NCBI GenBank assembly: GCA_016711505.1
Contig: JADJSV010000018.1
Span: 320,352 to 384,351 of the forward strand
Source of the DNA: Bacteroidota bacterium
GTDB lineage: Bacteria > Bacteroidota > Bacteroidia > AKYH767-A > 2013-40CM-41-45
Direction: 5' to 3'
DNA: 64,000 nt
Both the position numbers and the translations under genes were made by a program. The notes beneath the pieces are model-generated. The model worked only from the letters and a program-made list of their open reading frames with translations, was not told the origin of the DNA and searched no databases. The first letter of the stretch is position 1. The number at the start of each line of letters is the position of its first letter. Positions 8,520 to 30,492 of the stretch are shown here, one piece after another.

Positions 8520-10517
8520 ATGAAAAGTAAGTTACAATACATCTTTCCCGTCTTACTCTTGATTTGTGGTTTGTATTCAATGCCATTAAAAATTATAGAA
8601 ACCAATCTTTCTAAAATGCCCGGAGATCTGGGTGATACCCGATTTAACAATTATATTCTTGAACATGGGCATAAGTATCTGACAGGGCAAATTGATTCGT
8701 TTTGGAATGCACCATTTTTATATCCATATAAAAACGTAACTGCATTATCAGATAATTTAATCGGAACACTTCCCATTTATAGCGTATTCAGATTTGGGAC
8801 AGACCGGGAAACTTCATTTTTGTTATGGATTATCTCGCTCTTTGTACTTAATTATATTTTCTGTTTCATTGCATTGAAAAAATGGTCCGGAGAAAATATC
8901 TTATCCTCCGTAGGTGCTTATATTTTTGCCTTTTCAATTTATAATCTGGGTCAATTTGATCATGTTCAGGTATTGCCAAAATTTATTGCACCACTTGTAA
9001 TTTTCTGGTGCTGGAAGTTTCTTTCTGAAGGAAAGTCAAAGTATTTTATTTTTATGTCACTTGGACTTATCTATCAGTTTTATTGCGGGATCTATCTTGC
9101 ATTTTTACTGATCTACATTCTTATGTTTCTAAGCATTTCCTATTTTATTGTTTACAAAGATTTCAAAGTCTTTTCTGGGTTTAAAGAGAAGAAATATTTA
9201 GCAACGTTAGCAGTAACAATTATTGCATCAATCGTACTTTTGTTTCCATTGATTCAACCATATCTAGATGTTGCAAAAACAATGGGTATGCGCAAATTTG
9301 AATCAGCATTTTCGACCATTCCGCATCTCAGATCTTATTTTTTCGCAACTCCTTCATCCGCAGTATGGAATGTGTTATCTGATCATGGTATCGGTAAACT
9401 CGATGTTTGGTGGAATCACTATCTTTTTGTTGGGGCACTTCCTTGGATTGGAGTCTTAACAACAGTCTTTTTGTTGTTTTTTAAAAAGAACGATAAACTT
9501 AATAAGAAGCAGAATCTATTTTTCTTAACTACATTATTTCTTTGTGTAATTTTTTGTCTGAACATTAATGGATTCACTTTATATGAATACATTTTTAAAA
9601 TTCCCGGATTTTCATCAATGCGATCTATTGACCGAATTATTAATCTGGAAGTATTTGTTTTCATTCTTGTATTTGTATTTTCATTTAAAAGTATAATTCA
9701 GGCATTTCCGAAAATGCAATTCTTACTTTACTTATTGCCGGTTTTAGTAGTTATAGAAAACCAGGTTGATGCTAATAAAGTAAAGAGATTTGATAAAGAA
9801 ACATCTCAGTCTCGTATAGCCGATGTTAAGGCGAGAATCGAAAAACAGTATGATCCAAAATATTCTGCAATAGCCTACATGGCATTTCATACTTATGTCG
9901 GCCCGGAAGAAAGCGGTTATATGGGATATGTCGCAAGGGCACTTGATGTAATGATCGCTTGTCAGGAATTAAATATTAAATGTGTAAATTCTTATACCGG
10001 TTTCGATCCGGGTAATTATCTGAATTTTTTCTATGAGCCACGTGACAGAACACTCAAAGAATGGTGTGAATTCAATAAGACGGATTATTCTTTAGTTCAA
10101 CATTTGAACGATTTTGGAAGGAAAGAAATTAGCCGGACGAAGATCAATCTAAAAGCATTTAATGGGAAATATATTTCCGCGATTGATAATGAAAATCCGG
10201 TGCTTGAAGCCAATAGAGATATTGCCCAAAGTTGGGAAACGTTTTTAATGATCAGATTTGAGAATGGAGAATGTATGATAAAGGCTCAAACAAATTTGAT
10301 TTTGCATCTGGAGAAAGATTCGATGTCTGAAATTAAAGCGAATAAAATAACAGGATCAGAAGAAGAAACTTTTCGGATTATTGAATTTTCAGATTCAACA
10401 GTAGCATTTCAGGCAGCTAACGGAAAATATCTGACCGTAGATAGTTCAACATTCCGAATTGCTGCAAAAGCCCCGGTCGTGGGAGTTGCTGAAAAATTCC
10501 GGATAATTGAATTGTAA
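8520..10517 (+). CDS. polytopic membrane protein (GT-C-like N-terminal region) with C-terminal fascin-like beta-trefoil repeats
   Basis: More than 10 hydrophobic segments in the first 430 aa. The C-terminal 150 aa contain repeated 'NGKY[IL].A.D......FRIIE' units characteristic of fascin-like beta-trefoil folds. The supplied ORF starts at TTG 8505; ATG at 8520. Confidence 0.5.
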   Translation: MKSKLQYIFPVLLLICGLYSMPLKIIETNLSKMPGDLGDTRFNNYILEHGHKYLTGQIDSFWNAPFLYPYKNVTALSDNLIGTLPIYSVFRFGTDRETSFLLWIISLFVLNYIFCFIALKKWSGENILSSVGAYIFAFSIYNLGQFDHVQVLPKFIAPLVIFWCWKFLSEGKSKYFIFMSLGLIYQFYCGIYLAFLLIYILMFLSISYFIVYKDFKVFSGFKEKKYLATLAVTIIASIVLLFPLIQPYLDVAKTMGMRKFESAFSTIPHLRSYFFATPSSAVWNVLSDHGIGKLDVWWNHYLFVGALPWIGVLTTVFLLFFKKNDKLNKKQNLFFLTTLFLCVIFCLNINGFTLYEYIFKIPGFSSMRSIDRIINLEVFVFILVFVFSFKSIIQAFPKMQFLLYLLPVLVVIENQVDANKVKRFDKETSQSRIADVKARIEKQYDPKYSAIAYMAFHTYVGPEESGYMGYVARALDVMIACQELNIKCVNSYTGFDPGNYLNFFYEPRDRTLKEWCEFNKTDYSLVQHLNDFGRKEISRTKINLKAFNGKYISAIDNENPVLEANRDIAQSWETFLMIRFENGECMIKAQTNLILHLEKDSMSEIKANKITGSEEETFRIIEFSDSTVAFQAANGKYLTVDSSTFRIAAKAPVVGVAEKFRIIEL

Positions 10518-10910
10518 AGTAAAATTGTACTTCAAATAGTCTTAACTCATTACAATCTTTTCTTACATCTTATTTTCTGTCGGCATTTTTATTTAAACAA
10601 CTATTTTCATTAAAATGATATTATATAACAGGATGTTTCCAATTTATTGTATTCTGAATTTCTGAAATTATAAATGAACACTATAGAAAAGTTCAATTTT
10701 CTTACAGTTATTCTTCAGAATTTCAATCTTGGAAAAATTCAAAATGAGTCATTTTAACTTAATTTCAAGGAACTTTAATTTCTAAGCTGCCGTTTGAATT
10801 CACAGATAGGTCTAAGCCCACACTTGGAATTATCTGCTTTCACAATTTCTTTCCAAAGAATTTGCAGAAGCATTTTAATTGAAATTAAATAAATACCACA
10901 CATATCCATT

Positions 10911-12494
10911 ATGAAAATTCATCCACACAATGCCTCTATGGAGGTGAATTCTGTTTACAAAACAAAACGCTTTGTAAATAAAATCAAAACAAGTTTAATA
11001 CTTGTTTTCTCAATTCTATCCCTAAATGGAATTGTATCAGCAAACAATCTTCAGATCACCGGTATCTCCGTGAATCAGACTGCAAAGACAGTTTCTTTCT
11101 CTGTGTCATGGGATAATAGCTGGAACATTGCCGGTACCGGAGTTCCTAACAACTGGGATGCAGTATGGATCTTTATTAAGTATAAAGATTGTAATGCTAC
11201 ATCAGCTATTCCATTTACACATGGAGCTTTAAGTAATGTACTTGCGAATCATACTATTCCTGCTTCACTGGAAGCAATGACTTCTGTCAACTGGAATGGT
11301 ACATCAGGTATTACTGAAAGCGTTGCTCAAGGTGCAACACTTGATTTTACGGATGGTATTATGTTGCGTCCAAAAGTTACAGGTACCGGAACTCTGGCTG
11401 CCTCAACTGTTGTACTAAACGTTCCTGCCCTTCCTGGTCCGGGAACAAACTTAAGCGTAAATGTTTTCGGAATAGAAATGGTTTACGTTCCTCAAGGTGA
11501 TTTTACAATTGGTGATGGTAGCGGTACTACTGCTGCTGTAAATAGTTTCCTTGGTTCAAACGTTCTGAACTCTGCATCTATGACAGTTACAGGTGCTTTT
11601 GAAACAGGTACATCTACTTTTTATATGAACAACGAACCGGTTGGTTCTGTACTTACAGTAAATAACGTATCGGCTGCTTTTCCAAAAGGCAATTACGGAT
11701 TCTATATGACAAAGTATGAAATTACAGAAGGTCAGTATATGGAATTCCTGAACACACTTGGAACTGCACAACAAACTACCCGTGCACCGGGAAGCTTTGG
11801 TACAAACAGAAATCAACTTCAACAAGCAGTACTTCCATATTCAACAACTCGTCCCGACAGAGCTCAAAACTTTTTAGGATGGGCTGATGTTACTGCATAT
11901 CTTGATTGGGCATGTTTACGTCCGGGATCAGAAACAGAATTTGAAAAAGCTTGTCGTGGTAACGGATCAACTTTAGGTGAATATGCCTGGGGAAATCTTG
12001 TTATCGCCCCGGGAACAACTTTCGCAGGTGCTGCAACGGAAAATGGAACAGAAACTTTCATCGCCGGAAATTGCACATATGGTAACGGTACTTATACTAA
12101 CGGTGACGGTGCCATTGGACCTGCACGTGTTGGGATCTATGCTACATCAAGCAGTACTCGTCAGACAGCAGGTGCTTCTTATTTCGGTATCATGGATATG
12201 AGTGGAAATGTAATGGAATATTATGTTGGTATTCACTCAACGCCTGCTTCTAATGCTTTGACTCGTACATGGGGAAATGGAGCACTTGATGCTGCAGGTC
12301 AACATGATGTTACTACATGGCCTGCCAATAACACAACTGCGACTAACGGTAGTGCTGCAAACTTAATCGGTTTACGCGGCGGTGCTTATAACAACGGTAT
12401 TGCACAGCTTCAGGTATCTGATAGAAACTATATGTATAATAACCCGAACCAAATTGGTAGAAATGCTCAAAATGGCGGACGGGGTATCAGATAA
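10911..12494 (+). CDS. secreted FGE-sulfatase (SUMF1) fold protein, GldJ/GldK-like
   Basis: Signal peptide, then FGE-domain signatures: IEMVYVPQGDFTIGDG, YMTKYEITEGQYMEFLN, GWADVTAYLDWACLRPGSETEFEKACRGNG..YAWGN, GIMDMSGNVMEYYVG, GLRGGAYNN. No Cys in the last ~130 aa, where FGE catalytic cysteines would sit, so probably non-catalytic like GldJ/GldK. Confidence 0.65.
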   Translation: MKIHPHNASMEVNSVYKTKRFVNKIKTSLILVFSILSLNGIVSANNLQITGISVNQTAKTVSFSVSWDNSWNIAGTGVPNNWDAVWIFIKYKDCNATSAIPFTHGALSNVLANHTIPASLEAMTSVNWNGTSGITESVAQGATLDFTDGIMLRPKVTGTGTLAASTVVLNVPALPGPGTNLSVNVFGIEMVYVPQGDFTIGDGSGTTAAVNSFLGSNVLNSASMTVTGAFETGTSTFYMNNEPVGSVLTVNNVSAAFPKGNYGFYMTKYEITEGQYMEFLNTLGTAQQTTRAPGSFGTNRNQLQQAVLPYSTTRPDRAQNFLGWADVTAYLDWACLRPGSETEFEKACRGNGSTLGEYAWGNLVIAPGTTFAGAATENGTETFIAGNCTYGNGTYTNGDGAIGPARVGIYATSSSTRQTAGASYFGIMDMSGNVMEYYVGIHSTPASNALTRTWGNGALDAAGQHDVTTWPANNTTATNGSAANLIGLRGGAYNNGIAQLQVSDRNYMYNNPNQIGRNAQNGGRGIR

Positions 12495-12560
12495 TCTCTT
12501 TATCATTTTATCCTTTCTCAAGGACCTTGGATGATCCTTCGTGGAAAGTGTTATTGAAAT

Positions 12561-12598
12561 AGTAATAGGACAGAGATATTACATCTCTTCCTATTACT
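12561..12598 (+). terminator. putative terminator hairpin downstream of the FGE-like gene
   Basis: AGTAATAGGACAGAGAT / ATCTCTTCCTATTACT imperfect 16-bp stem with ATTAC loop, followed by an A/T-rich stretch. Confidence 0.35.
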
Positions 12599-12734
12599 TA
12601 TTTTAAATCATTACAAAAAAATTTAATAGTAAAAGTTTAATCACTTTAGCAGTTGTACTGGCTGATCGTTGATTGCATTAATTAGATGCTTCCGGTTTGA
12701 CAATGCATGTTAGTGTTGATCTATAATAAAATTT

Positions 12735-15279
12735 ATGCGGACCAGTTTTATCCTCGCCTTAATTATTTTATTCAGGCTCCCTGCATTTTCGCAATACAGG
12801 GGAGGAGATTATAGTGGTTCTGCTGTTTCAATTAGTTCTTGCGTTTCAACTTACTCACCATTTTCAGGAGGATCAAATGACGGATCTTCATTGTCGCAAA
12901 CTGTTTCCTGTTCAAGTTCAGCAAATATTTATAAAGGTGGTTCATATGACGGCATAGGTGTCAGCATGACTTCATGTACAATGGTTGAAATCTACAAAGG
13001 TGGATCTTACCAGGGTTCTTCAATGAGCGCGATTGTTTGTGCAACTACAATTTACAGTGGCGGAGCTTTCAATGGCGGTGGATTTAATTCATGGAATAGT
13101 TGTCAGGGAAATATTTATAATGGCGGAAGAAATTCCGGATTTTCAGTTTACAAATTTGAATGTACTGTTGCAGCTTCCGTTTTTACCGGTGGTGCATACG
13201 ATGGTTTCAGCCTTAGTGCCGGTACATGTGTTACAACTTCGCCACCAATTTATACCGGTGGTCCATACGATGGTTTTTCTACCAGTAAAACATCTTGTAT
13301 AGTTTCGGCTTCTATTTTAAAGGCGGATCTTATAGTGGCTATGCAGTAGATACAGCTTCTAATTGTTTCTTTTCTTCACTCAGTATATTTTTTGGTGGCC
13401 CATATGATGGTTCTTCTGTCGATAAATTTGCACCATGTCCGACTTCATTTTCAATTTACTCAGGCGGATCTTATGATGGATTTCATCTTAATAGCATCTC
13501 TTGCCCGCCACCAATCACTGCAATTTATCAAGGCGGTTCATATGATGGATTCAGTTTGAATTCAGCAAGCTGTGCTGTTGCTGCCAGCATTTATAAGGGT
13601 GGCCCCTATGATGGATTCTCATCTTCAGGATTCTCATGTGTGTATTCAAATCTGATATACAGAGGTGGACCTTACGATGGAACTTCAGAAGATGGTGTCG
13701 CTTGTCCGGTTGCTGCCAGTATTTTTATTGGTGGATCTTATGATGGGTATGCAAGTAATCCTTTTGTTGCTTGTCCAAGCCCGATCAATATTTATAACGG
13801 CGGACCTTATGATGGTTTCAGTTCAAGTAGCACAACATGTATTTCAGTCTCTGTGTTTACCGGTGGCTCGTATAGTGGGTTTTCTGTAAATACGGTTTCA
13901 TCATGTACATTTGCTGCCAGTATTTATTCAGGTGGGCCTTACGATGGAAATAGTCAGGATTTCACAACTTGTCAGTCTACAATTTATTCAGGAGGTTCAT
14001 TCAGCGGTTATTCAATGGACAGTTACATCGCATGTCTGGCGGATATCTACAAAGGTGGTTCTTATGATGGCCATTCTATTAATTCAACTTTATGTGCACC
14101 ACCAATTACAGCAATTTATCACGGTGGTTCGTATGATGGTTTAGCAGTTGGAAAAATTTCTTGCTCTGTTGCTGCTACTATATTCTCCGGTGGACCTTAT
14201 GATGGACACTCAGTTATTGGAACTTCTTGTCCATTACCAATTACAGCTTTTTACAAAGGCGGTCCATACCAGGGAAGTTCTGTCAGCAGTCTCACTTGCG
14301 GACCGATGAGTATTATCTTCAAAGGCGGAGCATATGATGGTTCTTCCAATTCAGGAACTTCATGTGCTGTTGCTGCGACGATCTACAAAGGAGGTTCTTA
14401 TGATGGCTTTGCAAATAACGGTATTGCATGTTTACCGGTTGCACAAATTTTTACCGGAGGTTCTTATAATGGATTCTCAAATAGCAAAACCACTTGTCCA
14501 TCGACAGTTTCAATTTACTTCGGAGGATCATATGATGGCTTCTCTGCAAATATTGATGCTTGTCCTGCACCACCGGGATCAATTTTCAGTGGTGGACCAT
14601 TCGATGGACATTCAAAAGGTGTTAGAAACGAATGCGCAACATTATTTACATTCCTGAATGGAGGAATTCACGACGGTGGTGCACTTGCAAGTACAGGTTG
14701 TTTAATTCCGCTGCCGGTTGAATTACTTTATTTCAATGCACAACTCACAGATCAGGAAACAAATCCTAATGTGCTTTGTACATGGGCAACTGCAAGTGAA
14801 ACAAATAATGATTTCTTTACTGTAGAAAAAACGATCGACTTCTTTATATATGAAAAAGTTGGTATCGTTCCGGAAAAGGTAACTCAACACACTTCCAGTC
14901 TTATTCATTTGTTGATCCGAGACCATATCCGGGTACTTCATACTATCGTTTGAAACAAACTGACTTCAATGGCAATGAAGAATACTCAAGAACTGTTTCT
15001 ATAGATCTGAATAAACCTGATGAATTAACTTTGGAAGTTTATCCGAATCCGGTAGTCGGTCCGTTCATTAACGTTAGCATTTCCGGAAGTCGAAATCAGG
15101 AAGTCGAACTGAAGATCGTTGATATGCTTGGTAAAGAGCAATACTCTCAAAACATCACATTGAACGACAGAGTTGCTTCCGTTGCGATCAAGAATGATCA
15201 CTTCATTTCAGGAATCTATTATGTTATTGTAAATAGCGGAACGAAGGACAGGGTGTTTAAGAAAATTATGATTCAATAG
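12735..15279 (+). CDS. Cys-periodic 'GG-x-Y-D-G' tandem-repeat cell-surface protein with type-A T9SS C-terminal sorting domain; split into 3 ORFs by two 1-nt homopolymer frameshifts
   Basis: Signal peptide, then about 28 tandem 23-26-aa repeats (C-x5-7-[IV][YF]-x-GG-[SPA]-[YF]-[DNSQ]-G-x-S). They are followed by the conserved pre-CTD module (LPVELLYFNA...FTVEK..D...YYRLKQTDFNGNEEYS) and a Por-secretion tail (LEVYPNPVVG...GIYYVIV). Frameshifts at 13315-13321 (T4/A3 run) and 14874-14877 (A4 run) join ORFs 12735-13349, 13295-14953 and 14950-15279. Confidence 0.6.
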
Positions 15280-15296
15280 TATTCTGGAGTTATATT

Positions 15297-15391
15297 TTAA
15301 CACTAAGGTCACTAAAATTTGTCACAAGAACACTTATGAAAAAAGCATCACTTGTGCTCTTGTGCTAAAAATTTAGTGATCTTAGTGTTAA
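15297..15391. repeat. MITE-like palindromic element, copy A
   Basis: TTAACACTAAGGTCACTAAA ... TTTAGTGATCTTAGTGTTAA terminal inverted repeats (20 bp, 1 mismatch) enclosing a nested inverted repeat (CACAAGAACAC / GTGCTCTTGTG). A second copy lies at 37853-37958. Confidence 0.5.
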
Positions 15392-15402
15392 AATTAATAG
15401 GT

Positions 15403-16220
15403 ATGCTTAAACGGATAATACCATCCACAGGAGAATTACTACCTGCTATCGGTCTCGGCACGTGGCAAAGTTTTGATGTTGACGAAAGCAATCAATCAAA
15501 CTTAATTCCGGTTTTGGAGGAGCTGCACAACAGTGGCGGAAGATTGATCGATAGTTCACCAATGTATGGAAGATCTGAAACTGTTATTGGAAACCTCACA
15601 TCCAAATTAAAATCAAGAAATGATTTTTTCTACGCAACTAAAGTCTGGACAACCGGAAGACAAGCCGGTATCGATCAGATGAAATCATCTATGAAAAAAA
15701 TGCAGCGGGAGAAAATCGACTTGATGCAAATTCATAATCTGCTCGACTGGAAAACGCATTTGCCCGTTTTAAGAGAATGGAAAGAAGAAGGAATTATAAA
15801 ATACATTGGCATCACGCATTACCAGGATTCAATGCATGATGAACTTGCCAAAATAATTTCTTCAGAAAAAATTGATTTCGTTCAGTTTAATTACTCAATC
15901 GATTCATTGCATGCGGAAAAAGATTAATGAAAGTTGCCGGAGACAATGGTGTTGCAATTTTGATCAACAGACCATTTGGTGAAGGGAGATTGTTTGAAAA
16001 AGTAAAAGGAAAAAAATTACCGGAATGGTGTATTGAAGTCGGAATAAAAAACTGGAGTGAGTACTTTCTGAAATTTATTCTTGCTGATCCTAATGTTACA
16101 TGCGTTATTCCTGCAACTTCTGATGTTCAACATGCAGTAGAAAACTATCGTGCCGGTTCAGTTTCTATTCCGGATTTCGATTTGAGTCGGAAAATGGTCA
16201 ACTTTTTGAATTATATCTGA
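15403..16220 (+). CDS. aldo/keto reductase (one 1-nt frameshift in an A5 run at 15917-15921)
   Basis: AKR signatures (GLGTW, SPMYG, IGITHY); ORFs 15352-15927 and 15927-16220 rejoin as ...HAEKRLMKVAGDNGVA after adding one A. ATG at 15403; the upstream ORF extension overlaps the MITE-like element. Confidence 0.7.
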
Positions 16221-16304
16221 TTGAATATTGACATTGAATTTTAGTTACCATAGAATTTTCAGAAATTAAATAAATATACAAAGAAAAAGAATCAATCTCA
16301 TATG

Positions 16305-18829
16305 CTAGTTTTTAACGAACATTGCGCTACTGGAAAAATCGTTCGAGGATAATTTGATTAAATATATACCATTTTCAAGATGAGTGACATCAATCTTGAC
16401 TGAATATTCAGAACCTGTCACATCTATCATTTCAACAACTCTTCCAGTCATGTCCAAAATTTGGATTCTGATTGAGCCGATTCTTATTTGTTGAAAAATA
16501 TTATATATGTTCAATATTTCATGGCAAGGATTTGGGCCAATTGAAATTAAATCACCGTGAAGATTATTAGTATTTGTACATATGTCAACAATAATGGATA
16601 TGCTGTCTGATTGAATACAGTTGTTACTATCTGTAACAATGACAGTAGCTAGCATTGTATCTGCCACAGAAGAAGTGTAATTGAAAAACGGACCACTGTC
16701 TCCGTTCTGCCATAAATAGCTTGTGAAATTTGTTCCTGCATTTAGAATTATCGATTGGTTTATACAGATGGTCGTATCAGGCCCTAAAGTTGGTGGTGCA
16801 ATTGAATTTCCTATAACACTTATTGTGTCAGTGGACGAACATTGATTTGAATCTATTAAAGTACAGAAATAGGTTCCGGGATTGTGAATGATAAATTGTG
16901 AACTGTTGGATCCGTCATTCCATAGAATGGAATCGGAAGAAGGAATATTAAGTTGGATGGAATCATTTAAACAAAGAACCCTATCAGCGCCAAGTTGGAT
17001 AAACGGCAGCGGGAGAATAAGAATTTCATTTGATCTTACATTGTTTGCACAAGATGTGTTGACTTGTATCTGAAAATTGCTGGAAAAGGAATTACAAAAA
17101 TTGGTTGATTTGAAGTAGAAATAACTGACCCATCTTCTACCAGACTGTACAGATAATTACCTGATAATGGTGGCGAAACTATTGCAACAAGTGTATCTCC
17201 AATACAAGCTGTAGTTGGAAACAATGATAGAGTATGATTATTGCCACGCAAAGTAAATGATGTTGATATTTGTTGGCCGATGGAATCTGTAACAGTTAGA
17301 ATAAACATTGTATTACTATCAGGAAAAAATATTGGCATCTCTGAATTTGGATATAGAATATTTAAAGTGTCATTCCAGTTTATTGAATATGGTGGATATC
17401 CACCTGATATAGTTATCAGACCATAATTTGGACTACGCTGACAACTAATCGTGTCACTAAAATTAATAGAAACTGTAAGTATATTGACGGTGTCAATTAC
17501 CCATGAATAATGTTCGTATTTATGGTTTAACGGATAGTGATATCTATCTGAATAAATTAAATTATCATTTACGTCGTATTGGAAATAGTAATTATAACCA
17601 TCTGAACCTGTACGATCACTTAGTACTTTTCCTGTTGAATTGTATTCAATGCCTGTGGAACTGAGATATGTCAGCACCCCGGAATTGAATGAATAGTATG
17701 TTATCAAATAACCTCCAAAATTTCCGAAAGTGTATTTTGTAAGTTTAACAGTGTCGTTGCATAATCCACTCGGACATTCAATTTCGAAACGATCAATGGT
17801 TGATGGGGCTTGGGTATAATCGAATAGAAATAGGTTGGTGTTCTGATAAACTCCTGAAATATATTGCTGACATGTAGAATCAATCGGTTGTCCTATCGGA
17901 TCTCTTGTGATTAGATAACGGTAGGTTGTATATGTTGGAATTCCTGAAACAGATGTGACTTCATTGATGTCAGTCTGTATTAAAAAATTATTATTATCAT
18001 AAGTGTTTATTGTAATAGTTGAATCAGGTGTTCCTGTAAAATAATTAATCTGCAGACTTTGAGAAATATTTCCGGCTGCATTGAATTGATAATTTGCAGT
18101 ATCTAATAGGCTAAATATGCCGAAATTCATTCCCCTAAATCCATATATTTCAAGTTGACCACTTGAAGAATATTGAAATGATTGCCGATAAGTTTCAGTG
18201 AGAACTGTATTGTTGATGGACTGAATAGTAAAAAGTATGACGTTGCCATTAATATCATATGTACAAGTACGCCTTTCTTTAAGTATTGGAATGCCGGTCG
18301 GAGAATAAAAATAGTATTCCCTGAGGATTGCTCTCCCAAATGCATCACGAGTTATCTCCCATTTGTCATAAAAAATATAGGATGTAGAATCAATTTGAAA
18401 TCTGTCAATTGTAATTGTATCATTATTGGCATCTCTATCAACTGTTGTTAAAATATGAAGCTTGAAATCGAATAAACTGTCAATTGTCAGTTCGTCATTT
18501 AGGTCATAGTAATAATGATGAACACTATTTAAAGCATACCCTAGCGTATCAATCGAAAGAAAATTACTATCTGTGATCAAATTCCAATTCAAGTCATAAT
18601 AATAATTTACATATTCCCCATAAGATTGAGGATAATAAGCATCAAAAGTACGTCCAACTTTTTCTGCTTTTATTAAATGTCCTTCGGAATCATATCTTTT
18701 TACACCATAACTTTGAGAATATAAATTTCCGCTCACTTCCAACTCACCTCTGGTTATTGCAAGGCTGTCTTGTCCTGATGAGTATATAAAATTGAGAATT
18801 AGAATTATAAACGGGAAAGTTGTTTTCAT
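16305..18829 (-). CDS. YD-repeat plus SprB-repeat T9SS cargo protein (frameshifted between 16667 and 17036)
   Basis: Signal peptide; YD-repeat-like units (RYDSEGHLI, TYDINGNVI, QYDVNDNLIYSD); SprB-type motif SGGYPPYSINW; the downstream fragment 16305-16667 carries the Por-secretion tail (GIYLIKLSSNDFSSSAMFVKN). Confidence 0.55.
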
Positions 18830-19162
18830 AATATTGAATATAATTATAAGTAGGAAGTTAATGTAAAAAATGAAGTGAAATCTATTAATTGAGATTTTAT
18901 TTTACATATATATTGTGCATTATTGCCCAAATTCCCATCTTCCTCAAGTCTAATATACCTCAGGCCAAAGTATAGTAAGATGAATTAATTGTTTTGTTTT
19001 ACATTTAGATTTATAATTCCTGTCCTTTATGCTAAACCGAATCATCTCATCAACCTAAGAGAATACAACGAGAGAAAACAGACTTGATATTTGCTCTAAA
19101 AATCGCTTTCCTTCCAGCCACTTTTTGAATCTCAAGAACTTTTCTTATTTTCATAGCCACAT

Positions 19163-21076
19163 TTGCTGAATTTATATTTTACCGTTAACCCTAAAATTAA
19201 TTCTCATGAAAAATATTTACTTACTTTCCTCTTAATTATTTCGATCAACCAACTATTTGCTCAATGTACTGTTTCGTTAATTGGTGTTACTAACTCGGGT
19301 TGCGATAATCAGAGTGGACAAATAACTTTACAAGCAGATAGCGGAACTGCTCCATACACATTTTATTTTCAGGCAAACCCGAATTCCACTTCCGGTTTAT
19401 ATACTATAACCAGCTTGACTGCCGGTGTATATAGTTTTTTTACGATCGATGCAAGTGGTGATACATGTAGTGGTGCTACGACAGCTACAGTTCTTCCAAT
19501 TTCTGCAAATCCGCTGAGTGTAACTTATAATTTAATCTATCCTTCATGTTTTACTTGCAATGATGGAAGTATTTCACCCAGTGTGTTTGGAGGATCTCCT
19601 CCTTATTCGTATTCGTGGAGTAATGGTGTAACAACACCTATAGCGAGTAATCTTTTAAGTGGGATTTATATATTTTATGCAGTTGATGGAAACGGTTGTA
19701 TGGTAACTGACACCATTAATCTTTATCCGGGACATCATTCTATCACAGGTACCGTTTATTGGGATTTGAATGGAAATGGGTTAATAGATTCTACAGACAT
19801 AGGTTTAAACGGTCAACAGATATTGCTTACTCCATCAATGCAAATTGCTTATACGAATCAAAATGGAAATTATCTTTTAAATGATACAATAGGAAATTAC
19901 ACAATTGAATATTCTGCAATAGGAAATTTTTCAATTGCAGGTGGACCTGTTTCATACAATATTGTACTTAACAGCGATACAACAGGATTTGATTTTTTAA
20001 TAATGCCGGATACGTTTTATCATGAAATGACTTCTTCCATTACTGCTCCGCTTACACGTTGTAATCTAGTTGGTGGAATCATTACCAGTTTTCAGAATAT
20101 AGGAACATATTTAGATTCTTTTACTGTTGAATTGACATTAGATACCAATTTGGTATATAATTATTCATATCCCGCAGGAACGGTAAACGGTCAAACAATC
20201 ACATATAGTTTTGCAAATTTAGTTCCCGGACAAACTATTAATATTCAAACGTCCTGTTTGTTTCCAGCGGCTGGTAGTGTTTTTGAGATCAATGGAGTAG
20301 TAAATCAATTTGACACAGCTGGTGTCATAGTCAATCAAAATATTCTTCATTTTACAAATACCGTTAGGTGCTCTTATGATCCGAATGATAAATCTGCATT
20401 CCCTCTCGGTGTAGGTGTAGACAGCGCTGTAGTTATGGATCAGGAATTATTATATCAGATCCGTTTTCAAAATACAGGGAATGATACTGCATTTAATGTT
20501 TTTGTGATGGATACTCTTGATGCAGGATTGAACCCTCAATCAATGCAATTGGTTGGTACTTCTCATCCGTGTACAGTAGAAAGAATGAATAATAACATTC
20601 TGAAATTTAATTTTGATAATATTCTTTTACCTGATAGTAATATTGACGAAGCTTCAAGTCACGGTTATATCTTATTCCGTATAAGCGGAAGTTCATCGAA
20701 TGTTGATCCTACGCCTGTAAATAATACAGCATATATTTATTTTGATCAGAATGCTCCTGTGGTGACGAATACTACCATGAGAACTTTCAGCAATAATCTT
20801 GTTTCCGGAATTCGCGATTTAAAAAGATCAATTGACTTTTCTATTCAGCCAATGCCTGTCACGGATCATGCTCGTGTGATCATCAACTCCAATGAAACCG
20901 GAAACTATGAGATTTTAATTTATGATCTTCTTGGTAAGAAAAATTTCATTGCTGATAAATTTGTTGGCATTGAATATTTATTGAACACAGAAAAACTTTC
21001 AAAAGGAGTTTACATTGTTCAGATCACAAATGTAAAAACTTCTGAATCCGGAAATTTAAAACTCATTAAACAATAA
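19163..21076 (+). CDS. SprB-repeat / DUF11-like T9SS cargo protein
   Basis: Cys-rich SprB repeats (GGSPPYSYSWSNG), CSYDPNDK conserved-repeat-domain signature, C-terminal Por-secretion tail (YEILIYDLLGKK...GVYIVQI). Apparent TTG start. Confidence 0.6.
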   Translation: MLNLYFTVNPKINSHEKYLLTFLLIISINQLFAQCTVSLIGVTNSGCDNQSGQITLQADSGTAPYTFYFQANPNSTSGLYTITSLTAGVYSFFTIDASGDTCSGATTATVLPISANPLSVTYNLIYPSCFTCNDGSISPSVFGGSPPYSYSWSNGVTTPIASNLLSGIYIFYAVDGNGCMVTDTINLYPGHHSITGTVYWDLNGNGLIDSTDIGLNGQQILLTPSMQIAYTNQNGNYLLNDTIGNYTIEYSAIGNFSIAGGPVSYNIVLNSDTTGFDFLIMPDTFYHEMTSSITAPLTRCNLVGGIITSFQNIGTYLDSFTVELTLDTNLVYNYSYPAGTVNGQTITYSFANLVPGQTINIQTSCLFPAAGSVFEINGVVNQFDTAGVIVNQNILHFTNTVRCSYDPNDKSAFPLGVGVDSAVVMDQELLYQIRFQNTGNDTAFNVFVMDTLDAGLNPQSMQLVGTSHPCTVERMNNNILKFNFDNILLPDSNIDEASSHGYILFRISGSSSNVDPTPVNNTAYIYFDQNAPVVTNTTMRTFSNNLVSGIRDLKRSIDFSIQPMPVTDHARVIINSNETGNYEILIYDLLGKKNFIADKFVGIEYLLNTEKLSKGVYIVQITNVKTSESGNLKLIKQ

Positions 21077-21085
21077 TCTATTTGC

Positions 21086-21460
21086 TCTGCTTGATTGGAA
21101 AACACATTTACCTGTTTTAAGAGAATGGAAAGAAGAAGGAATTAAAAATTATATTGGCATCACACACTATCAGGATTCAATGCATGATGAGCTTACAAAA
21201 ATAATTTTTTCCGAAAAAATTGATTTTTCCAATTTAATTATTCAATCGATTTACTGTACTAAGAGAAAAAATTATTAAAAGTAGCCGGAGACAATGGTGT
21301 TGCAACTTTGATCAACAGATCATTTGGTGGTGGCAGGTTGTTTGAAAAGTAAAAGGGAAAAATTACCGGAATGGTGTATTGAAGTCGGAATAAAAAACTG
21401 GAGTGAGTATTCCCGACTATAATTTAAGACGGAAAATGGTCAATCAACTTAATTTAATCT
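21086..21460 (+). pseudogene. decayed duplicate of the 3' end of the aldo/keto reductase gene at 15403-16220
   Basis: I estimate 85-90% nucleotide identity to 15740-16220, with a roughly 100-bp internal deletion and stop codons in frame. Confidence 0.6.
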
Positions 21461-21463
21461 GAC

Positions 21464-23572
21464 CTATTTAATAATTGAAATCTTGAATTGATAATTAACC
21501 TTTCCACTTTCTGAAAGTAATTTTCCTACATAAATACCATTTGAAAGATTCTCAAGTTCAATATCAGTTTCTGCTGATTCTAGTTCTGCTGATTTTACGA
21601 ATATTCCTTGTAGATCATAAATTTTAAGTAAAATATTTTCATTAATACTTTCCGGCGTTTTTAAATGTATGTTTCCATTCGTTGGATTAGGATAAACTGA
21701 CAATTCTTTTTCTGAATTAGAAATATAACCAACACCAAGAATAGTGTTTTCCCGCCATATTCCTTGATATTCTGAACCAATATATAATCTGTCATTAATC
21801 AATGTCAAATTTCTTGATTCAAATGGAAGGTTTGAATATAATGGCGTCCAGTCAATTCCATTATTAGAAGAAGTGTAAATTCCATTCTTTCTTAGCAAGC
21901 CAATTAACTCGCCATTTCTTCCAACGATTGAGTGTGGAGTAAGCTGGGTTCCTCTGTGATCTTGGCACACCGTTTAAAGGAGATTGATTCCATGTTTGTC
22001 CGGAATCCAAACTTGTATAGAGTGTTGAAGCAGTTGTCGAAATAAGTATATTATTTACAAAAGTTGTATTCGAAAGATATAAATTATTAGTCTGGGATGG
22101 AATGCAGTATAAATATGTCCAAGATGATGTTACGGGATCAAACTTAAAGATGCCGCCAGTAAATGTATTTGCAATTAGATCATTTCCTATCGCGCATAAC
22201 GTACCGGAAAAATTTGAACTAGTAGTACATCCCGAAATGATTGGAAGAGGAGGTAGTGACGTCCAATTATCCCCAAGGTCATCACTATAAAAAAGTTTAG
22301 TGCTTGTTTTGCAATAGAATCTGTTATTTATTTTGATAGGTGGACTGTATAAAACGACGTTTGAACTCGAACCTGTATTTAATCCCTGTTGCCAGGTAAT
22401 CCCCGATCGTAACTTCTAATGAAGTAAAGATTTGTAGAAAAGATGCTGTCGCCGCTTACAATTATTGATGACATATTTCTATTTATAGTATCCCAATTTA
22501 GGCCATCAGTTTCACTTTTATTAAGAATATTTAGTTCAGCTGTGCAATACAAAACATTGCTATTCCCTTCTAAATTTAAAATGAATTGACCTTTGATTCC
22601 AGAACATGATAAATATGCAGAGTCGAGAGATGGAATATAGTGGACAAGATTGTAAAGTTCATTGCTAAAGGATAATTCATCTCCATTTGGCAAAGTATAG
22701 CGATTCTGATATCGTACTTGATATGGAATTGGAGAAGCTGTCCAGGTTATACCAAAATCACTAGACACAGTATAATTATTTGATCGATCTACCCAATATA
22801 ATAAATTGTCTGCTGACCGAAGGAAGAAAAATATTGTTGAGTCAATTGTCACTGATGTATTCCATGTTATACCTCTGTCTTCACTTTTCATAATTGATAC
22901 AAAACCTGGTGGACCCCATTTATATCCGAATACTAAAGAGTCAATTATAAGTTTATGTTGAATCTGATCTAGTGAGTCTATTCTTGAAAAATTTAAGGTA
23001 GTATCAGAAATATAATGTTTGGACTCAAGAGAATCGAAGCTCACTAGATAAAGAAAATTGTTGCTGAAGACGGATCCTACAAACTCTCCACCATCAGGCA
23101 TGTTTATCGGATAATAAGTGCTGCCAAAATCGTCAGATTCAAGAATAGTTGGAGCTGCACTTACAATTATTTTATTGCCAAATCTATTTAGCGAAGGTTC
23201 AATTATATATGTGTATATTAGTGTATCAAGCGGCCAAGTTTGGCCACCATCAAAACTTTTTGTCACATGTATACTATCGTACGAATCATAAACTTCAATT
23301 CCGGAAAAATAGAGAAGTACTATGGTATCAGAAGATGTTAACATAGAACAAATCTGCTTACCTTGAAAATCGGAAAATGCTACCCAATTTCTCCCTTCAT
23401 TTGGAGAGATATACAAATTCTGCATTGATCCGCAGAGGATACCTGTTGAAATTTTTGCAAAACAATTTGGAAAGCATCCCTCTGGACCATTTAGTTGTGT
23501 GAATTGGGCCATTCCGTTTAGACTTGAAAACAGGAAAGTTGCAAGTAATATGAAAGTGTTTTTTAGGTTCAT
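21464..23572 (-). CDS. BNR/Asp-box repeat T9SS cargo protein (frameshifted between 21970 and 22379)
   Basis: Signal peptide; Asp-box motifs (SFDGGQTWP, SEDRGITWN, SSDFGITWT); C-terminal fragment 21464-21970 carries the Por-secretion tail (ELSVYPNPTNGNIHL...GIYVGKL). Confidence 0.55.
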
Positions 23573-23672
23573 TTTTAAATATTCTATGGACTTAAAAATA
23601 TGGAAATTCTTTCAATCAGCTAACTTTTGCTTTAAAGCATTGTTTATGAGTACATAAAACCCACTAAAAAGG

Positions 23673-23703
23673 TTGGATTTCACCCCCTGAAAGCCTACCT
23701 TTG
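23673..23703 (+). promoter_or_regulatory. candidate Bacteroidota sigma-A promoter of the suf operon
   Basis: TTG (23673-23675), 20-nt spacer, TACCTTTG (23696-23703) matching the Bacteroidetes -33 TTG / -7 TAnnTTTG consensus; 29 nt upstream of the sufA ATG. Confidence 0.35.
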
Positions 23704-23732
23704 TACCTGATTTTAAAGCAGAAAGGCAAAAA

Positions 23733-24059
23733 ATGATAACGGTAACAGAGCGCGCCAAAGAAAAAGCGCTGGAATTGATTCAAAAAGACCATAAACCGGC
23801 TGATTCGTTCATTCGAGTGGGTGTGGAAGGTGGCGGTTGTTCAGGTTTGACATACAAACTGGACTTCGATAATGTGCAATTACCTGAGGACAAAGTGTTT
23901 GAAGATAAGGGAATTAAGATCGTTTGCGACAAGAAGAGCTTCCTGTACCTGATTGGTACTGAGCTTGATTTCTCAGATGGACTGAATGGTAAAGGATTCA
24001 ATTTTATCAATCCAAATGCTTCCCGTACTTGTGGTTGTGGTGAAAGTTTTTCGGTGTAA
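23733..24059 (+). CDS. sufA: Fe-S cluster insertion protein, HesB/IscA/SufA family
   Basis: 108 aa; GGGCSG and C-terminal CGCGESF motifs. Confidence 0.8.
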   Translation: MITVTERAKEKALELIQKDHKPADSFIRVGVEGGGCSGLTYKLDFDNVQLPEDKVFEDKGIKIVCDKKSFLYLIGTELDFSDGLNGKGFNFINPNASRTCGCGESFSV

Positions 24060-24177
24060 TTTTTTTTGCCCGAATTCCTTAATTAGATTAAGTCTGATTA
24101 AAGATAACGTTCGATAACGTTGTTTTTAATTTAATAAAGAAGTAAATAAAACATCAGGGACTAATTCCCATTGATTC

Positions 24178-25619
24178 ATGTCAGATACAAAGATCATAGA
24201 CGATATCACCCAAAGCGAATACAAGTATGGCTTTGTCAGTAATATCGAATCCGATAATGCACCGAAAGGATTGAACGAAGAGATCGTTCGGTTCATCTCT
24301 GCAAAAAAAAATGAACCTGAATGGTTACTCGAATGGCGATTGAAATCTTTTCGTCATTGGTTAACTATGACCGAACCGAAATGGCCGAATGTTCATTATC
24401 CGGAAATTAATTTTCAGGATATCATCTATTACTCTGCACCGAAACAAAAATTACACTGAACTCACTGGATGAAGTTGATCCGGAAATTCGTGCAACGTTT
24501 GATAAACTTGGCATCTCTCTCGAAGAACAAAAACGTTTAACAGGTGTTGCTGTTGATGCTGTCATCGATAGCGTTTCTGTAAAAACAACTTTTCGCGGAG
24601 CACTTGCTGAACTTGGAATAATCTTCTGTTCATTCAGTGAAGCAGTTCATGATCACCCGGAACTGATAAAAAAATATTTAGGCTCTGTCGTTCCGAGTAC
24701 CGATAATTTTTATGCAGCATTGAACTCCGCAGTTTTCAGCGATGGTTCTTTCTGTTATATTCCAAAAGGCGTTCGTTGCCCGATGGAATTATCGACGTAC
24801 TTCAGAATAAATTCTGCCGGCACCGGACAATTCGAACGTACACTCATCATCGCTGATGAAGGTGCATTCGTTAGTTATCTGGAAGGTTGCACTGCTCCAA
24901 TGCGTGATGAAAATCAATTGCATGCTGCAGTAGTAGAAATTTACGCTCACAAAGATGCACAGGTAAAATACAGTACAGTACAAAACTGGTATCCGGGCGA
25001 TAAAAATGGAAAAGGCGGAATCTATAATTTCGTAACCAAGCGCGGAATTTGTGCAGGTGATAATTCAAAGATCTCATGGACGCAAGTTGAAACAGGTTCA
25101 TCTATCACCTGGAAATATCCGAGTGTGATTTTGAAAGGTGATAATTCTGTTGGTGAATTCTATAGTGTAGCCGTAACGAATAATTATCAGCAGGCTGATA
25201 CCGGAACGAAAATGATTCACCTCGGAAAAAATACGAAGAGTACAATCGTATCAAAAGGTATTTCCGGTGGACATAGTCATAACAGTTACCGTGGACTCGT
25301 TCGCATTTCACCAAAAGCAGAAAATGCCCGCAACTATTCGCAATGTGATTCACTATTACTCGGCGACAAATGCGGCGCACATACATTCCCATATCTTGAA
25401 GTAAACAATAAATCAGCAACAGTAGAACACGAAGCTACAACATCAAAAGTCGGCGAAGACCAGATCTTTTATTGCAACCAACGCGGCATCTCTAACGAAG
25501 ATGCAGTAGGACTGATTGTTAACGGTTATTGCAAAGAAGTCTTTAACCAACTACCAATGGAATTCGCTGTGGAGGCGCAGAAGTTGCTGGCGGTTTCTTT
25601 AGAGGGAAGTGTGGGGTGA
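24178..25619 (+). CDS. sufB: Fe-S cluster assembly protein SufB (1-nt frameshift in an A5 run at 24446-24450)
   Basis: N-terminal fragment 24178-24459 and C-terminal fragment 24720-25619 are both SufB; the intervening frame reads ...[26 protein letters not shown]..., restored by adding one A. Confidence 0.85.
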
Positions 25620-25764
25620 TTTTGTTTGCTGGTTGCATGTTACAGCATATTAGTATGCCTAAAAAAATAAAAGTAAATAAGTTGGTTCATTGGTAACCTG
25701 CAAACCTGAAAATTGCAACCTGCAAACCAAAGTTGATAAAGTACATTAGAATTAAACAAAAAAA

Positions 25765-26525
25765 ATGCTATCAATTAAAAATCTATCTGCTAGAGTAGAA
25801 GATAAAGAAATATTAAATGGCTTCAACCTCGAAGTAGGTAAAGGAGAAGTCCACGCCATCATGGGCCCTAACGGTTCAGGAAAAAGCACTCTTGCTTCAG
25901 TATTGCGGGGAGAGAAAGTTATGAAGTCACTGATGGTGAAGTAAAGTTTAATGGAGAGGATCTTTTAGATATGTCGCCCGAAGACAGCGCACGTAAGGGG
26001 TTATTTCTTGCTTTTCAATATCCCGTTGAAATTCCCGGAGTAACGAATGCTAACTTTCTAAAGACAGCATTAAACGAAGTTCGTAAATCAAAAGGTCTTG
26101 CGCCGATGGATTCGAAAGACTTTTTGGTGTTGATGAAGGAAAAGATGAAACTCGTTGAAATGGACAAAGCAATGACGCAGCGTTCAGTGAATGAAGGTTT
26201 CAGTGGAGGTGAGAAAAAACGCAATGAAGTTTTTCAAATGGCAATGCTCGAACCGACGCTTTCTATACTTGATGAAACTGATTCAGGTCTGGATATTGAT
26301 GCCTTGAGAATTGTTGCTAACGGTGTGAATGCATTGAGAAGCCCTGAACGTTCTTTCATCGTTATCACTCACTATCAGCGATTACTTGACTATATCGTAC
26401 CTGATTTCGTTCACGTATTGTACAAAGGAAAAATAGTAAAGTCCGGGACAAAAGAACTTGCTTTCGAACTGGAAGAAAAAGGTTACGACTGGATCAAAGA
26501 AGAAGTAGATGCAGCCAAAGTATAA
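25765..26525 (+). CDS. sufC: Fe-S cluster assembly ATPase SufC (1-nt frameshift in a G4 run at 25907-25910)
   Basis: Walker [10 protein letters not shown] at the N-terminus; the supplied ORF 25971-26525 is the C-terminal part (ABC signature LSGGEKKR, Walker [11 protein letters not shown]). Confidence 0.85.
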
Positions 26526-26539
26526 TTGGCAGAAACATT

Positions 26540-27841
26540 ATGAATACAACGATCAATACAATGCCGGAATATTTAACACGGTATTTTGAAAATAATAATC
26601 TGGCGGGACCTGCTGTTTTGAAGCAGATCAGAAAAGATGCGCTTGCACGTTTTGAAGCATTAGGAATTCCTTCGACTAAACATGAAGAATGGAAGTATAC
26701 AAATCTCGCACAACTTTCTAAATCAGAATTTCATCCCGCACTTTATCATACACTTTCTGAAAACGATGTTGTGAATGATATGATCGCCGGAAAAGATGTT
26801 GTTCTTATGGTTTTTGAAAATGGAAGATTTAACGAAGAACTTTCGAATTTCAATGACCTTCCTGAAGGGGTCACTATCGGAAATCTTTCCGATAACTTAG
26901 ATAATACTTTAGTAGTTGAAAATATTTCACGCCACGCTTCTTTTCAGAATGAAGCTATGGTTGCATTGAACACAGCACATATTTCAGAAGGTTCATTCAT
27001 TCACATTGCTAAAGGCGTAATATTTGAAAAACCAATTCATCTGATGTACATCTCCGGTGGTGAAGCTGATACTCTTGCATTACCAAGAAATCTGCTTATC
27101 GCAGAAAAAAATTCTTCAGTGAATGTCATTGAAAGTTTTCACTCTCGGGGCAGAGAAACGTCTTTTATCAATATCGTTACTGAAGTTGTAATGGAAGAGA
27201 ATGCAAAAGTTGAGTGGTCAAAAATTCAACTTGAGAATTCTAATACAATTCATATTAGTCATACTGAATGTACTCAGGCAGTGAATTCGAATTTTGATAT
27301 TCACACCATTACTTTTGGAGGAAAAATAGTCCGGAACAATCTGCACATTGTATTGAACGGAAAAAATATTACTGCAAACCTCAACGGATTGTATGTTGGT
27401 GGTGGTGATTCGCTGATCGATAATCATACGCTTGTTGATCATGCAATGCCTAATTGCCAGAGTAATGAACTTTACAAAGGTGTTTTAGATGGCAGATCTA
27501 AAGGTGTGTTCAACGGAAAAATTTTCGTTCGTAAAGATGCCCAGAAATCAAACGCTTATCAATCGAATAAAAATATTTTGATGTCTGACGAAGCTTCCAT
27601 GAATGCAAAACCGCAACTGGAGATCTTCGCTGATGATGTTAAATGTAGCCACGGTGCTACAACCGGTCAACTCGACAAAGAAGCCCTCTTCTATTTACGC
27701 AGTAGGGGTATCGGTGAAGAAGCGGCACGGGCTTTTCTTACCATTGCTTTTGCTGAAGATGTTCTCAACAGAATTACGAATGAAACACTTCGTGAAGAAT
27801 TGAAATCACGAATCAGCGAAAGATTAATTGCAAAAAATTAA
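26540..27841 (+). CDS. sufD: Fe-S cluster assembly protein SufD
   Basis: 433 aa; position between sufC and sufS; SufBD-family C-terminal beta-helix region. Confidence 0.8.
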   Translation: MNTTINTMPEYLTRYFENNNLAGPAVLKQIRKDALARFEALGIPSTKHEEWKYTNLAQLSKSEFHPALYHTLSENDVVNDMIAGKDVVLMVFENGRFNEELSNFNDLPEGVTIGNLSDNLDNTLVVENISRHASFQNEAMVALNTAHISEGSFIHIAKGVIFEKPIHLMYISGGEADTLALPRNLLIAEKNSSVNVIESFHSRGRETSFINIVTEVVMEENAKVEWSKIQLENSNTIHISHTECTQAVNSNFDIHTITFGGKIVRNNLHIVLNGKNITANLNGLYVGGGDSLIDNHTLVDHAMPNCQSNELYKGVLDGRSKGVFNGKIFVRKDAQKSNAYQSNKNILMSDEASMNAKPQLEIFADDVKCSHGATTGQLDKEALFYLRSRGIGEEAARAFLTIAFAEDVLNRITNETLREELKSRISERLIAKN

Positions 27842-29088: not shown

Positions 29089-29097
29089 AGAACTAAA

Positions 29098-29870: not shown

Positions 29871-29876
29871 GTCGAA

Positions 29877-29955: not shown

Positions 29956-29976
29956 AAAAAAAACATTCTAAAGAAA

Positions 29977-30489: not shown

Positions 30490-30492
30490 ATT

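Follow-up and report, generated by a model that had tools for sequence, protein, structure and literature searches.

In this study, we analyzed a 64,000-nt window of contig JADJSV010000018.1 (GenBank assembly GCA_016711505.1, positions 320,352 to 384,351 of the forward strand) from an uncultured Bacteroidota bacterium. The window contains an aldo/keto reductase (AKR) gene whose 3' part (copy 1) occurs a second time as a fragment (copy 2). Copy 2 lies between S and B, two genes for predicted cargo of the type IX secretion system (T9SS). The surrounding frame is conserved in relatives and consists of U (a further predicted cargo gene), AKR, a variable island, and sufA-sufBCDSE. We conclude that copy 2 was probably left by a one-sided illegitimate recombination in an AKR-sufA hot spot, which holds 0-3 T9SS cargo genes in relatives. 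The event resembles homology-facilitated illegitimate recombination (HFIR). The junction anatomy, an empty-site haplotype, and the divergent origin and neutral decay of copy 2 were observed directly.

A direct repeat of the AKR 3' end

A repeat search and local alignment showed that window positions 15738-16220 (copy 1) correspond to 21086-21462 (copy 2) as a direct repeat. The repeat search returned four in-register blocks with a spacing of 5,348-5,242 nt. In the local alignment, 299 of 334 positions (89.5%) were identical between 15738-16077 and 21086-21426, and approximately 104 nt of copy 1 (about 16064-16165) were absent from copy 2. The final 55 nt of the repeat, including the shared stop codon, were 73% identical. 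The BLAST E-values of both copies were approximately 1e-110, and the repeat is therefore not due to chance. An initial annotation of the window had reported 15740-16220 to recur at 21086-21460 with 85-90% identity and an internal deletion of roughly 100 bp, and the alignment (89.5% over 334 nt, with a 104-nt deletion) confirmed this. It also placed exactly two genes between the repeats, which was correct: M (841 aa, minus strand) and S (623 aa, plus strand). The homology of the repeat ends at the AKR stop codon. Repeat D5 hinted that the duplication might extend beyond this stop into the C-terminal sorting domains of M and B; blastn and tblastx gave nothing significant there.

The island of the window consists of M, S, copy 2, and B (W-type). 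The conspecific loci L062 and L075-L078 have neither copy 2 nor B (C-type). Besides the genome of the window, GCA_963851665.1, GCA_020054605.1, GCA_017990075.1, and GCA_016704865.1 are W-type, and GCA_016719005.1 is C-type. The W-type arrangement of S, copy 2, and B was found across JGI, ENA, NCBI, and Logan assemblies, which came from differing samples and assemblers, and the S/copy 2/B junctions recurred in at least 10 independent assemblies (L058, L059, L060, L063-L066, L073, L080, and L083). A mis-join or a collapsed repeat might be suspected in an error-prone long-read metagenome-assembled genome (MAG) with about one homopolymer indel per kb, in which NCBI annotates B as two fragments (MBK8365421 and MBK8365422). 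However, since identical junctions occur in all of these collections, mis-assembly is already refuted and can be practically dismissed as the source of the arrangement.

The empty site and the two junctions

We compared the window with the C-type loci. The identity was 99.2-99.3% over 9205-21089 and 97.2-98.0% over 23620-33368. In place of the 2,530 bp at 21090-23619 of the window, the C-type loci carry 233 bp, with breakpoints at 21089/21090 and 23619/23620 (L075-L078). Past 21089, the C-type sequence continues as the native S flank, which is common to species L028, and it rejoins the window at 23620. Since C-type loci hold M and S without copy 2 and B, the variable unit is copy 2 plus B and not M plus S. 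The initial annotation had proposed that M and S were inserted as a cassette. Its reading of a recombination footprint was borne out, but the two genes are probably not the inserted unit because C-type strains keep both and lack B.

At the left junction, the window reads TCTATTTGCTCTG/CTTGATTGG, where the slash marks the breakpoint (longer reading, TAATCTATTTGCTCTG/CTTGATTGG). C-type loci and L028 read TCTATTTGCCCTG/TGTGTCG (longer reading, TAATCTATTTGCCCTG/TGTGTCG), and AKR reads AATCTG/CTCGACTGG (longer reading, CATAATCTG/CTCGACTGG). Between the recipient (CCCTG/TGTG) and AKR (ATCTG/CTCGAC), the only overlap is CTG at 21087-21089. These results show that the left join is illegitimate and was made through a 3-nt CTG microhomology, 13 nt past the S stop codon.

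On the right side, 12 fixed differences between W-type and C-type were located in 23632-23687, with essentially none beyond. This tract is short and was possibly eroded by later recombination. At the differing sites, the C-type state was mostly the same as that of the other relatives examined. The right junction thus fits a homologous crossover in sufA or shortly upstream of it. We also considered the native S 3' flank as a terminator and rejected it, as the hairpin of L028 is not conserved in C-type strains.

The features of the locus in window coordinates are as follows.

12735..15279, plus strand: U, predicted T9SS cargo gene upstream of AKR, with Por_Secre_tail at the C-terminus
15403..16220, plus strand: AKR copy 1, complete aldo/keto reductase gene, 272 aa (Pfam PF00248, E = 2.9e-19 on the window fragment)
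15738..16220, plus strand: repeat copy 1, AKR codon 113 through the stop codon (repeat search and alignment)
16305..18829, minus strand: M, predicted T9SS cargo gene, 841 aa, with Por_Secre_tail as the sole Pfam match
19205..21076, plus strand: S, predicted SprB/DUF7619 T9SS cargo gene, 623 aa (Pfam SprB, DUF7619, and sorting domain)
21077..21089, plus strand: last 13 nt of the native S 3' flank, with the CTG microhomology at 21087-21089
21086..21462, plus strand: AKR copy 2, 5'-truncated pseudogene fragment of a divergent AKR allele
21464..23572, minus strand: B, predicted BNR/Sortilin-like T9SS cargo gene, 703 aa, intact in L058, L064, L065, and L073
21090..23619, no strand: W-type block of copy 2, B, and 47 bp, 2,530 bp in total (breakpoints against L075-L078; also L062)
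23620..23687, no strand: diverged homologous sequence upstream of sufA, linked to the block (12 fixed W-type versus C-type differences in 68 nt); the homologous crossover would have occurred just past it
23733..24059, plus strand: sufA-like gene (Fe-S_biosyn), first gene of the conserved suf operon

Copy 2 derives from a divergent AKR allele

Copy 2 begins at AKR codon 113. In its common allele, the real lesions are this 5' truncation, the loss of 1 nt near 21227, a TAA at 21260-21262, and the loss of 104 nt at 21409/21410. The differences between copy 1 and copy 2 were concentrated at third codon positions, with 26 of 37 for the L073 allele (p = 5e-6) and 25 of 40 for the common allele. For comparison, the orthologues W1 and L034 showed 25 of 39. 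The L073 allele lacks the 104-nt deletion, and the independent Logan assembly L080 was identical to it at 492/492 positions. This undeleted allele could be compared over codons 222-256, where its translation remains that of an AKR C-terminus (...VTCMIPATSNAKHAYDNFQSGSYNIPDYNLSRKMVNHLNLI) apart from one gap codon at a 1-nt deletion. Over these codons it was 68% identical to copy 1, whereas copy 1 was 83% identical to L034 and 90% to L028. Copy 2 also retains ancestral residues that were lost from copy 1 (K174, L176, T186, and DYNL). The third-position bias, the distant 3' third, and the ancestral residues together indicate that copy 2 came from a different AKR allele that was functional while diverging. 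Thus, copy 2 is a fragment of a divergent allele (AKR_x), which was under purifying selection before the truncation. It is no duplicate of the resident tail, and the earlier description of it as a decayed version of that tail did not hold in view of the third-position bias and the 68% identity of the 3' third.

AKR_x itself is a mosaic. Over codons 113-200 it shows approximately 88-90% identity to W1 and L034, over codons 201-221 it scarcely differs from copy 1, and in its 3' third it is distant. Both copies share a stretch of 50 identical nt that ends at AKR nt 660 (P about 0.01), and the phylogeny of codons 201-221 is discordant. This is at most suggestive of gene conversion between the two AKR copies. 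A search of AKR proteins returned none with the copy-2 diagnostic residues (IKNY and DYNLRRKMVNQLNLI). A separate observation was made on an ENA contig of 1,179 bp (P0148), which carries an AKR with N- and C-terminal parts of W1 type and a middle of L028 type (residues about 167-222); its composition points to intragenic recombination between AKR genes of different species.

Copy 2 decays neutrally

We examined the variation of copy 2 among strains. The common and L073 alleles differed at 39 of 389 positions, with no preference among the three positions of the codon (14/8/14; p = 0.29). Unique substitutions numbered 17 in the common allele and 12 in the L073 allele, and the two also differ in their stops, frameshifts, and deletions. 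In a third allele (L083), states of the other two are combined, and it has deletions of its own. Between L064 and L073, there were no differences in B (0/2112) or in the M-S spacer (0/375) compared with the 39/389 in copy 2, and all seven differences in S fell within its last 400 nt, beside the fragment. As the divergence is confined to copy 2 and the end of S, the divergent allele lies in a recombination patch of about 1 kb. Hypermutation of the kind made by diversity-generating retroelements (DGRs), or of another kind, was considered for the 10% allele divergence and rejected: the spectrum is unbiased, the 1-kb patch fits, and the mosaic L083 allele supports it.

These results show that copy 2 has decayed neutrally since its truncation and that homologous recombination has reshuffled it among strains. 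The scar is old relative to strain divergence, and the 104-nt deletion, which is polymorphic, arose later. The initial annotation had called the arrangement recent; the existence of three alleles, two of which are 10% apart in a neutral pattern when compared in detail, contradicts this.

The alignment of copy 2 to AKR covers codons 113-272 only, and no allele of it is free of disruption. It is therefore a pseudogene fragment and not a gene of the AKR family. We considered whether copy 2 is maintained as a functional element. It might separate the convergent genes S and B or act as their terminator, contain a small open reading frame (ORF), or supply homology for a programmed excision of M and S. 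It fills the entire S-B intergenic space, it is kept in many strains, and in L073 it contains small ORFs of 72 aa and 41 aa. However, the three alleles have different stops, frameshifts, and deletions, including the polymorphic 104-nt deletion. The two alleles compared in detail are 10% divergent without preference for a codon position, there is no Rfam match, and C-type strains live without copy 2. A maintained function is accordingly very hard to reconcile with these data, and copy 2 is a recombination scar in decay for which there is no sign of a function.

Mechanism and polarity of the event

An adjacency of AKR_x and B must once have existed as the source of copy 2. For the event itself, we infer the incoming partner, the mode of DNA entry, and the RecA dependence. 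In the source chromosome, AKR_x would have stood tail-to-tail with B. A segment comprising AKR_x from codon 113, B, and the sufA upstream region would then have joined a chromosome of the order U-AKR-M-S-sufA. Its right end would have entered by homologous recombination just upstream of or within sufA, and its left end by the illegitimate CTG join behind S, so that the block would have replaced the 233 bp of native S 3' flank. Since no recombination with the resident AKR would have taken place at the left end, M and S would have been retained, and the AKR tail came to be present twice as a direct repeat. Neutral decay of the fragment and its shuffling among strains by homologous recombination would have followed.

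Several points weigh against this scheme. Scans for AKR in genome and metagenome contigs, the contexts of B homologues, and the AKR protein search all failed to show the source haplotype, an intact AKR_x beside B, and an intact AKR beside B was seen in 0 of the 11 B-bearing contigs examined. The microhomology of just 3 nt is the lower limit reported for HFIR. The homologous right-hand crossover is read from a single diverged tract of 68 nt. Since the event is old and the flanks have been homogenized by recombination, their present similarity is weak evidence on which side came in. The mosaic structure of AKR_x indicates a history of more than one event. Finally, natural transformation, or another route of DNA entry, would enter the proposal by analogy for these uncultured Bacteroidota.

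We weighed two other histories. In the first, a tandem duplication in situ of the resident AKR tail, or of a larger piece, was followed by decay of the second copy and by insertion or replacement of cargo genes in the space between; the initial annotation had offered a version of this as its alternative, with a cassette inserted after duplication of the AKR tail. The direct repeat lies within one chromosome and the 50-nt identical tract is shared by both copies, which speaks for such a duplication. However, a truncated duplicate is expected to diverge neutrally, and the differences are instead third-position biased and orthologue-like. The copies are not closest relatives over their full length, the 3' third of the undeleted allele is farther from copy 1 than the AKRs of other species are, and copy 2 kept ancestral states that copy 1 lost. 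Several extra steps would also be needed to put B exactly 1 nt past the AKR stop. The comparisons of codon positions and of the 3' third largely refute a duplication in situ, and we regard it as highly improbable.

The second history is the mirror image, and it corresponds to the principal model of the initial annotation. Here, a segment with U/AKR-M-S entered a U-AKR_x-B-sufA chromosome by homologous recombination upstream and by an illegitimate join inside AKR_x at codon 113, so that M and S would be the inserted cassette and copy 2 the resident remnant. It yields exactly the same junction and repeat, and the AKR_x-B adjacency is needed somewhere anyway. Over codons 113-200, copy 2 is as near to L034 (90%) as copy 1 is (91%), and this part could be native. 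Later homogenization of the flanks would also have erased most of the information on polarity. However, the conspecific strains without copy 2 carry M and S and lack B. The predicted haplotype with AKR directly followed by the BNR cargo gene, and thus without M and S, was absent from the 11 B-bearing contigs and from the AKR protein search. The interval 21090-23687 is the only W-specific block that diverges from all relatives, and S with its native flank is ancestral at the locus in sister species. On the strength of the C-type strains, the missing AKR-B haplotype, and the single deviant block, we prefer the import of B into a chromosome that already held M and S, and consider the mirror-image history unlikely.

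The island between AKR and sufA in relatives

The island begins at the AKR stop codon and ends at window positions 23620-23622 in every relative. Its content differed as follows.

L074 (backbone 81-91% nt; AKR 86% aa): island of 53 bp without a gene
L038 (backbone 71-87%): island of about 1 kb
L028, L035, and L036 (backbone 74-83%): DUF2007 small gene and S
L034 (backbone 91%): DUF2007 small gene, then the start of S at the contig end
L062 and L075-L078 (C-type, conspecific): M and S
Window (W-type): M, S, copy 2, and B

The presence of S in sister species (L028 and L034) indicates that it is ancestral at this locus. The initial annotation had described M and S as an accessory and recently rearranged pair. 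They are accessory cargo in a rearranging locus.

M stands in place of the DUF2007 small gene of the sister species, with breakpoints at 16212-16220 and 19086-19088, and has replaced that gene. The small gene encodes DUF2007 and a zinc ribbon (146 aa). The segments compared were 16221-19085 of the window, with M (2.9 kb), and 2480-3393 of L034, 10827-11471 of L028, and 4003-4431 of L032, with the small gene. In L032, this gene lies upstream of an AKR of which only the first 80 codons are left, and the sufA upstream region comes directly after them. The arrangement in L032 and the exchange of M and the DUF2007 gene show that the locus was rearranged several times independently.

S with its upstream 75 nt (window 19088-21089; L028 11472-13473) was 96% identical in nucleotides to L028, against a backbone of 74-83%. 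In a database of 5.8 billion proteins, S formed one cluster at 90% identity or more (61 members), and the next relative was at 41%. This points to a recent transfer between species, or a sweep, of the cargo gene. In L061 (GCA_029562325.1), compared over window positions 21378-24077, the 3' end of B and copy 2, including the 104-nt deletion junction, were 93-100% identical, the 5' two-thirds of B 70-85%, and sufA 94-99%. B is thus a mosaic between strains, which suggests allelic replacement or diversification of a cargo domain.

Further variation was seen beside the island. Between the window and L075/L078, the suf operon (25120-28600) showed patchy divergence of 3-7% per 500 nt against values below 1% elsewhere. 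The patches show no linkage to the presence of the B block and look like further recombination tracts. A second variable spot lies on the U-AKR side, where L028 (8110-10000) and L038 (898-3404) have 1.9-2.5 kb with extra ORFs. The gap in the window (15276-15411) is only 137 nt and holds a hairpin element of about 110 nt. This element occurs at 15289-15398 and again at 37849-37960, both times intergenic, with 27-nt arms (AACACTAAG[GA]TCACTAA...). It folds with an energy of -44.9 kcal/mol (z = -8.8) and gave no match in Rfam. In L074, where the backbone is just 81% identical, the copy upstream of AKR is conserved at 96%. It may be a palindromic repeat of the repetitive extragenic palindrome (REP) or miniature inverted-repeat transposable element (MITE) type.

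Gene annotation and homopolymer errors

U, M, S, and B all match PF18962 (Por_Secre_tail), which marks T9SS type A cargo, above the curated cut-off, and are therefore predicted T9SS cargo. M had been labelled a YD/SprB-repeat protein, but Por_Secre_tail was its only Pfam match and neither YD nor SprB repeats were matched. AKR copy 1 belongs to PF00248 by its family profile match and its open reading frame in L033 and others. The stop codon of B is 1 nt from that of copy 2. No transposase, integrase, or tRNA was found in or beside the island by Pfam analysis of the island and flank ORFs, Rfam scan, and neighbourhood annotations; the Rfam scan of the whole window gave no matches.

Compared with short-read assemblies of the same species, the window contains about one homopolymer-length error of +/-1 per kb, and every indel between the window and L073 was a +/-1 change in a homopolymer run. 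Such errors were found at 13315, 14872, 15917, 17084, 17620, 19122, 19209, and elsewhere. U is split into three ORFs in the window (indels at 13315 and 14872) and is intact with 848 aa in L063 and L075. AKR, which the initial annotation treated as an intact gene, is frameshifted in the window through one missing A in the A5 run at 15917-15921, yet it is intact (272 aa) in L033, L063, and L073-L078. Most assemblies have M as an intact gene of 841 aa; it is split in L033 and L073 too, but not at the position seen in the window. B is split into ORFs of 168 aa and 397 aa, which match the two NCBI proteins; these are encoded on a 450-kb MAG contig, and the window appears to derive from this MAG, which also encodes MBK8365420. 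An exact look-up of the S protein of the window gave no match because of the homopolymer error at the start of S. Two frameshifts in copy 2 are also homopolymer undercalls, with A4/G3 in the window and A5/G4 in L058 and L064. These results show that the splits of U, AKR, M, the S start, and B in the window are assembly errors that simulate pseudogene fragments. The overlapping ORF pairs at 30654-31621 and 34295-35799 are possibly further errors of this kind.

Comparison with known systems

A transposon or insertion sequence (IS) typically shows a target-site duplication of a few bp, terminal inverted repeats, and a transposase gene. This type of insertion was rejected here: the repeat has a length of 377-483 nt and an identity of 87-90%, Pfam gave neither a transposase nor an integrase in the ORFs of the island and its flanks, and the repeat search returned no terminal inverted repeats at the block ends. 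In the template repeat/variable repeat (TR/VR) pair of a DGR, differences are confined to template adenines and a reverse transcriptase gene lies nearby. A DGR was likewise rejected, as substitutions of all types occur and the neighbourhood annotations contain no reverse-transcriptase domain. Campbell-type integration by a single crossover also leaves direct repeats of a gene segment around the inserted DNA, with a 5'-truncated second copy. It differs from the present case in that the left junction of copy 2 is illegitimate, there is no vector or element backbone, and nothing is duplicated on the sufA side. Ordinary pseudogene fragments at islet borders are truncated, frameshifted, neutrally decaying, and polymorphic, as copy 2 is. 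There is no essential difference from these, and the present case is better resolved through the empty site, the three alleles, and the undeleted allele.

HFIR has been shown experimentally in Streptococcus pneumoniae, Acinetobacter baylyi, Pseudomonas stutzeri, and Escherichia coli conjugation (PMC3240628 and its references 1-3). Its hallmarks are a microhomology of 3-10 bp, an insertion coupled to a deletion, and one homologous end (PMC3240628). RecA-dependent integration of incoming linear DNA also belongs to HFIR and would apply here by analogy. The present locus shares the non-homologous junction with microhomology (CTG, 3 nt), the insertion with a deletion in the recipient (2,530 bp in, 233 bp out), and the absence of mobile-element genes, and its other end may lie in homologous DNA near sufA. 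It differs in that the event is read from haplotypes that occur naturally in uncultured Bacteroidota rather than observed, and in that the 'heterologous' end is homologous to a resident gene 4.9 kb away. This homology to the resident AKR is the reason for the long direct repeat.

In Vibrio cholerae, displacement of type VI secretion system (T6SS) effector/immunity modules leaves orphan 3' ends and immunity genes, and orphan arrays occur in loci of Rhs and contact-dependent inhibition (CDI) (PMC5361080). By analogy, these would be the closest biological counterparts of the AKR-sufA site. In both cases, secretion cargo is stacked at a fixed locus, new modules enter (here probably) through one homologous end, displaced 3' fragments lie beside older genes, and the array length varies by strain. 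Unlike in those arrays, the fragment here comes from a flanking AKR of housekeeping type and not from a gene for cargo or toxin. Immunity genes are absent, the cargo genes share no conserved 5' constant region, and the secretion system is T9SS rather than T6SS.

Implications

The event is of a known kind, and copy 2 is an ordinary but unusually well-documented recombination scar. It provides a clean natural example of one-sided illegitimate recombination, obtained from metagenomes of uncultured activated-sludge Bacteroidota alone, in which the empty site and the microhomology at the junction were recovered together with three decay alleles and an undeleted allele that keeps the lost stretch. 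There are also two practical warnings. Genes bracketed by a direct repeat need not be the inserted unit, and the apparent pseudogenization of five genes in the window is an assembly artefact.

For the biology of these bacteria, the locus suggests that turnover of T9SS cargo at this site occurs through recombination with anchors in conserved genes of the flanks and without the machinery of mobile elements, and that the cargo gene S may have crossed species boundaries recently. A bolder and tentative proposal, made by analogy, is that the AKR-sufA site is a dedicated stacking site for T9SS cargo, where one-sided recombination anchored in the flanks would add, displace, and sweep cargo between species. 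The 0-3 cargo genes at the site in relatives, the mosaicism of B between strains and of the AKR alleles, and the 96-98% identity of S across species with a backbone of 74-83% are in favour of it. If this is true, the site would be the T9SS counterpart of the T6SS effector and Rhs orphan arrays, and the AKR fragment would be its first visible displacement scar.

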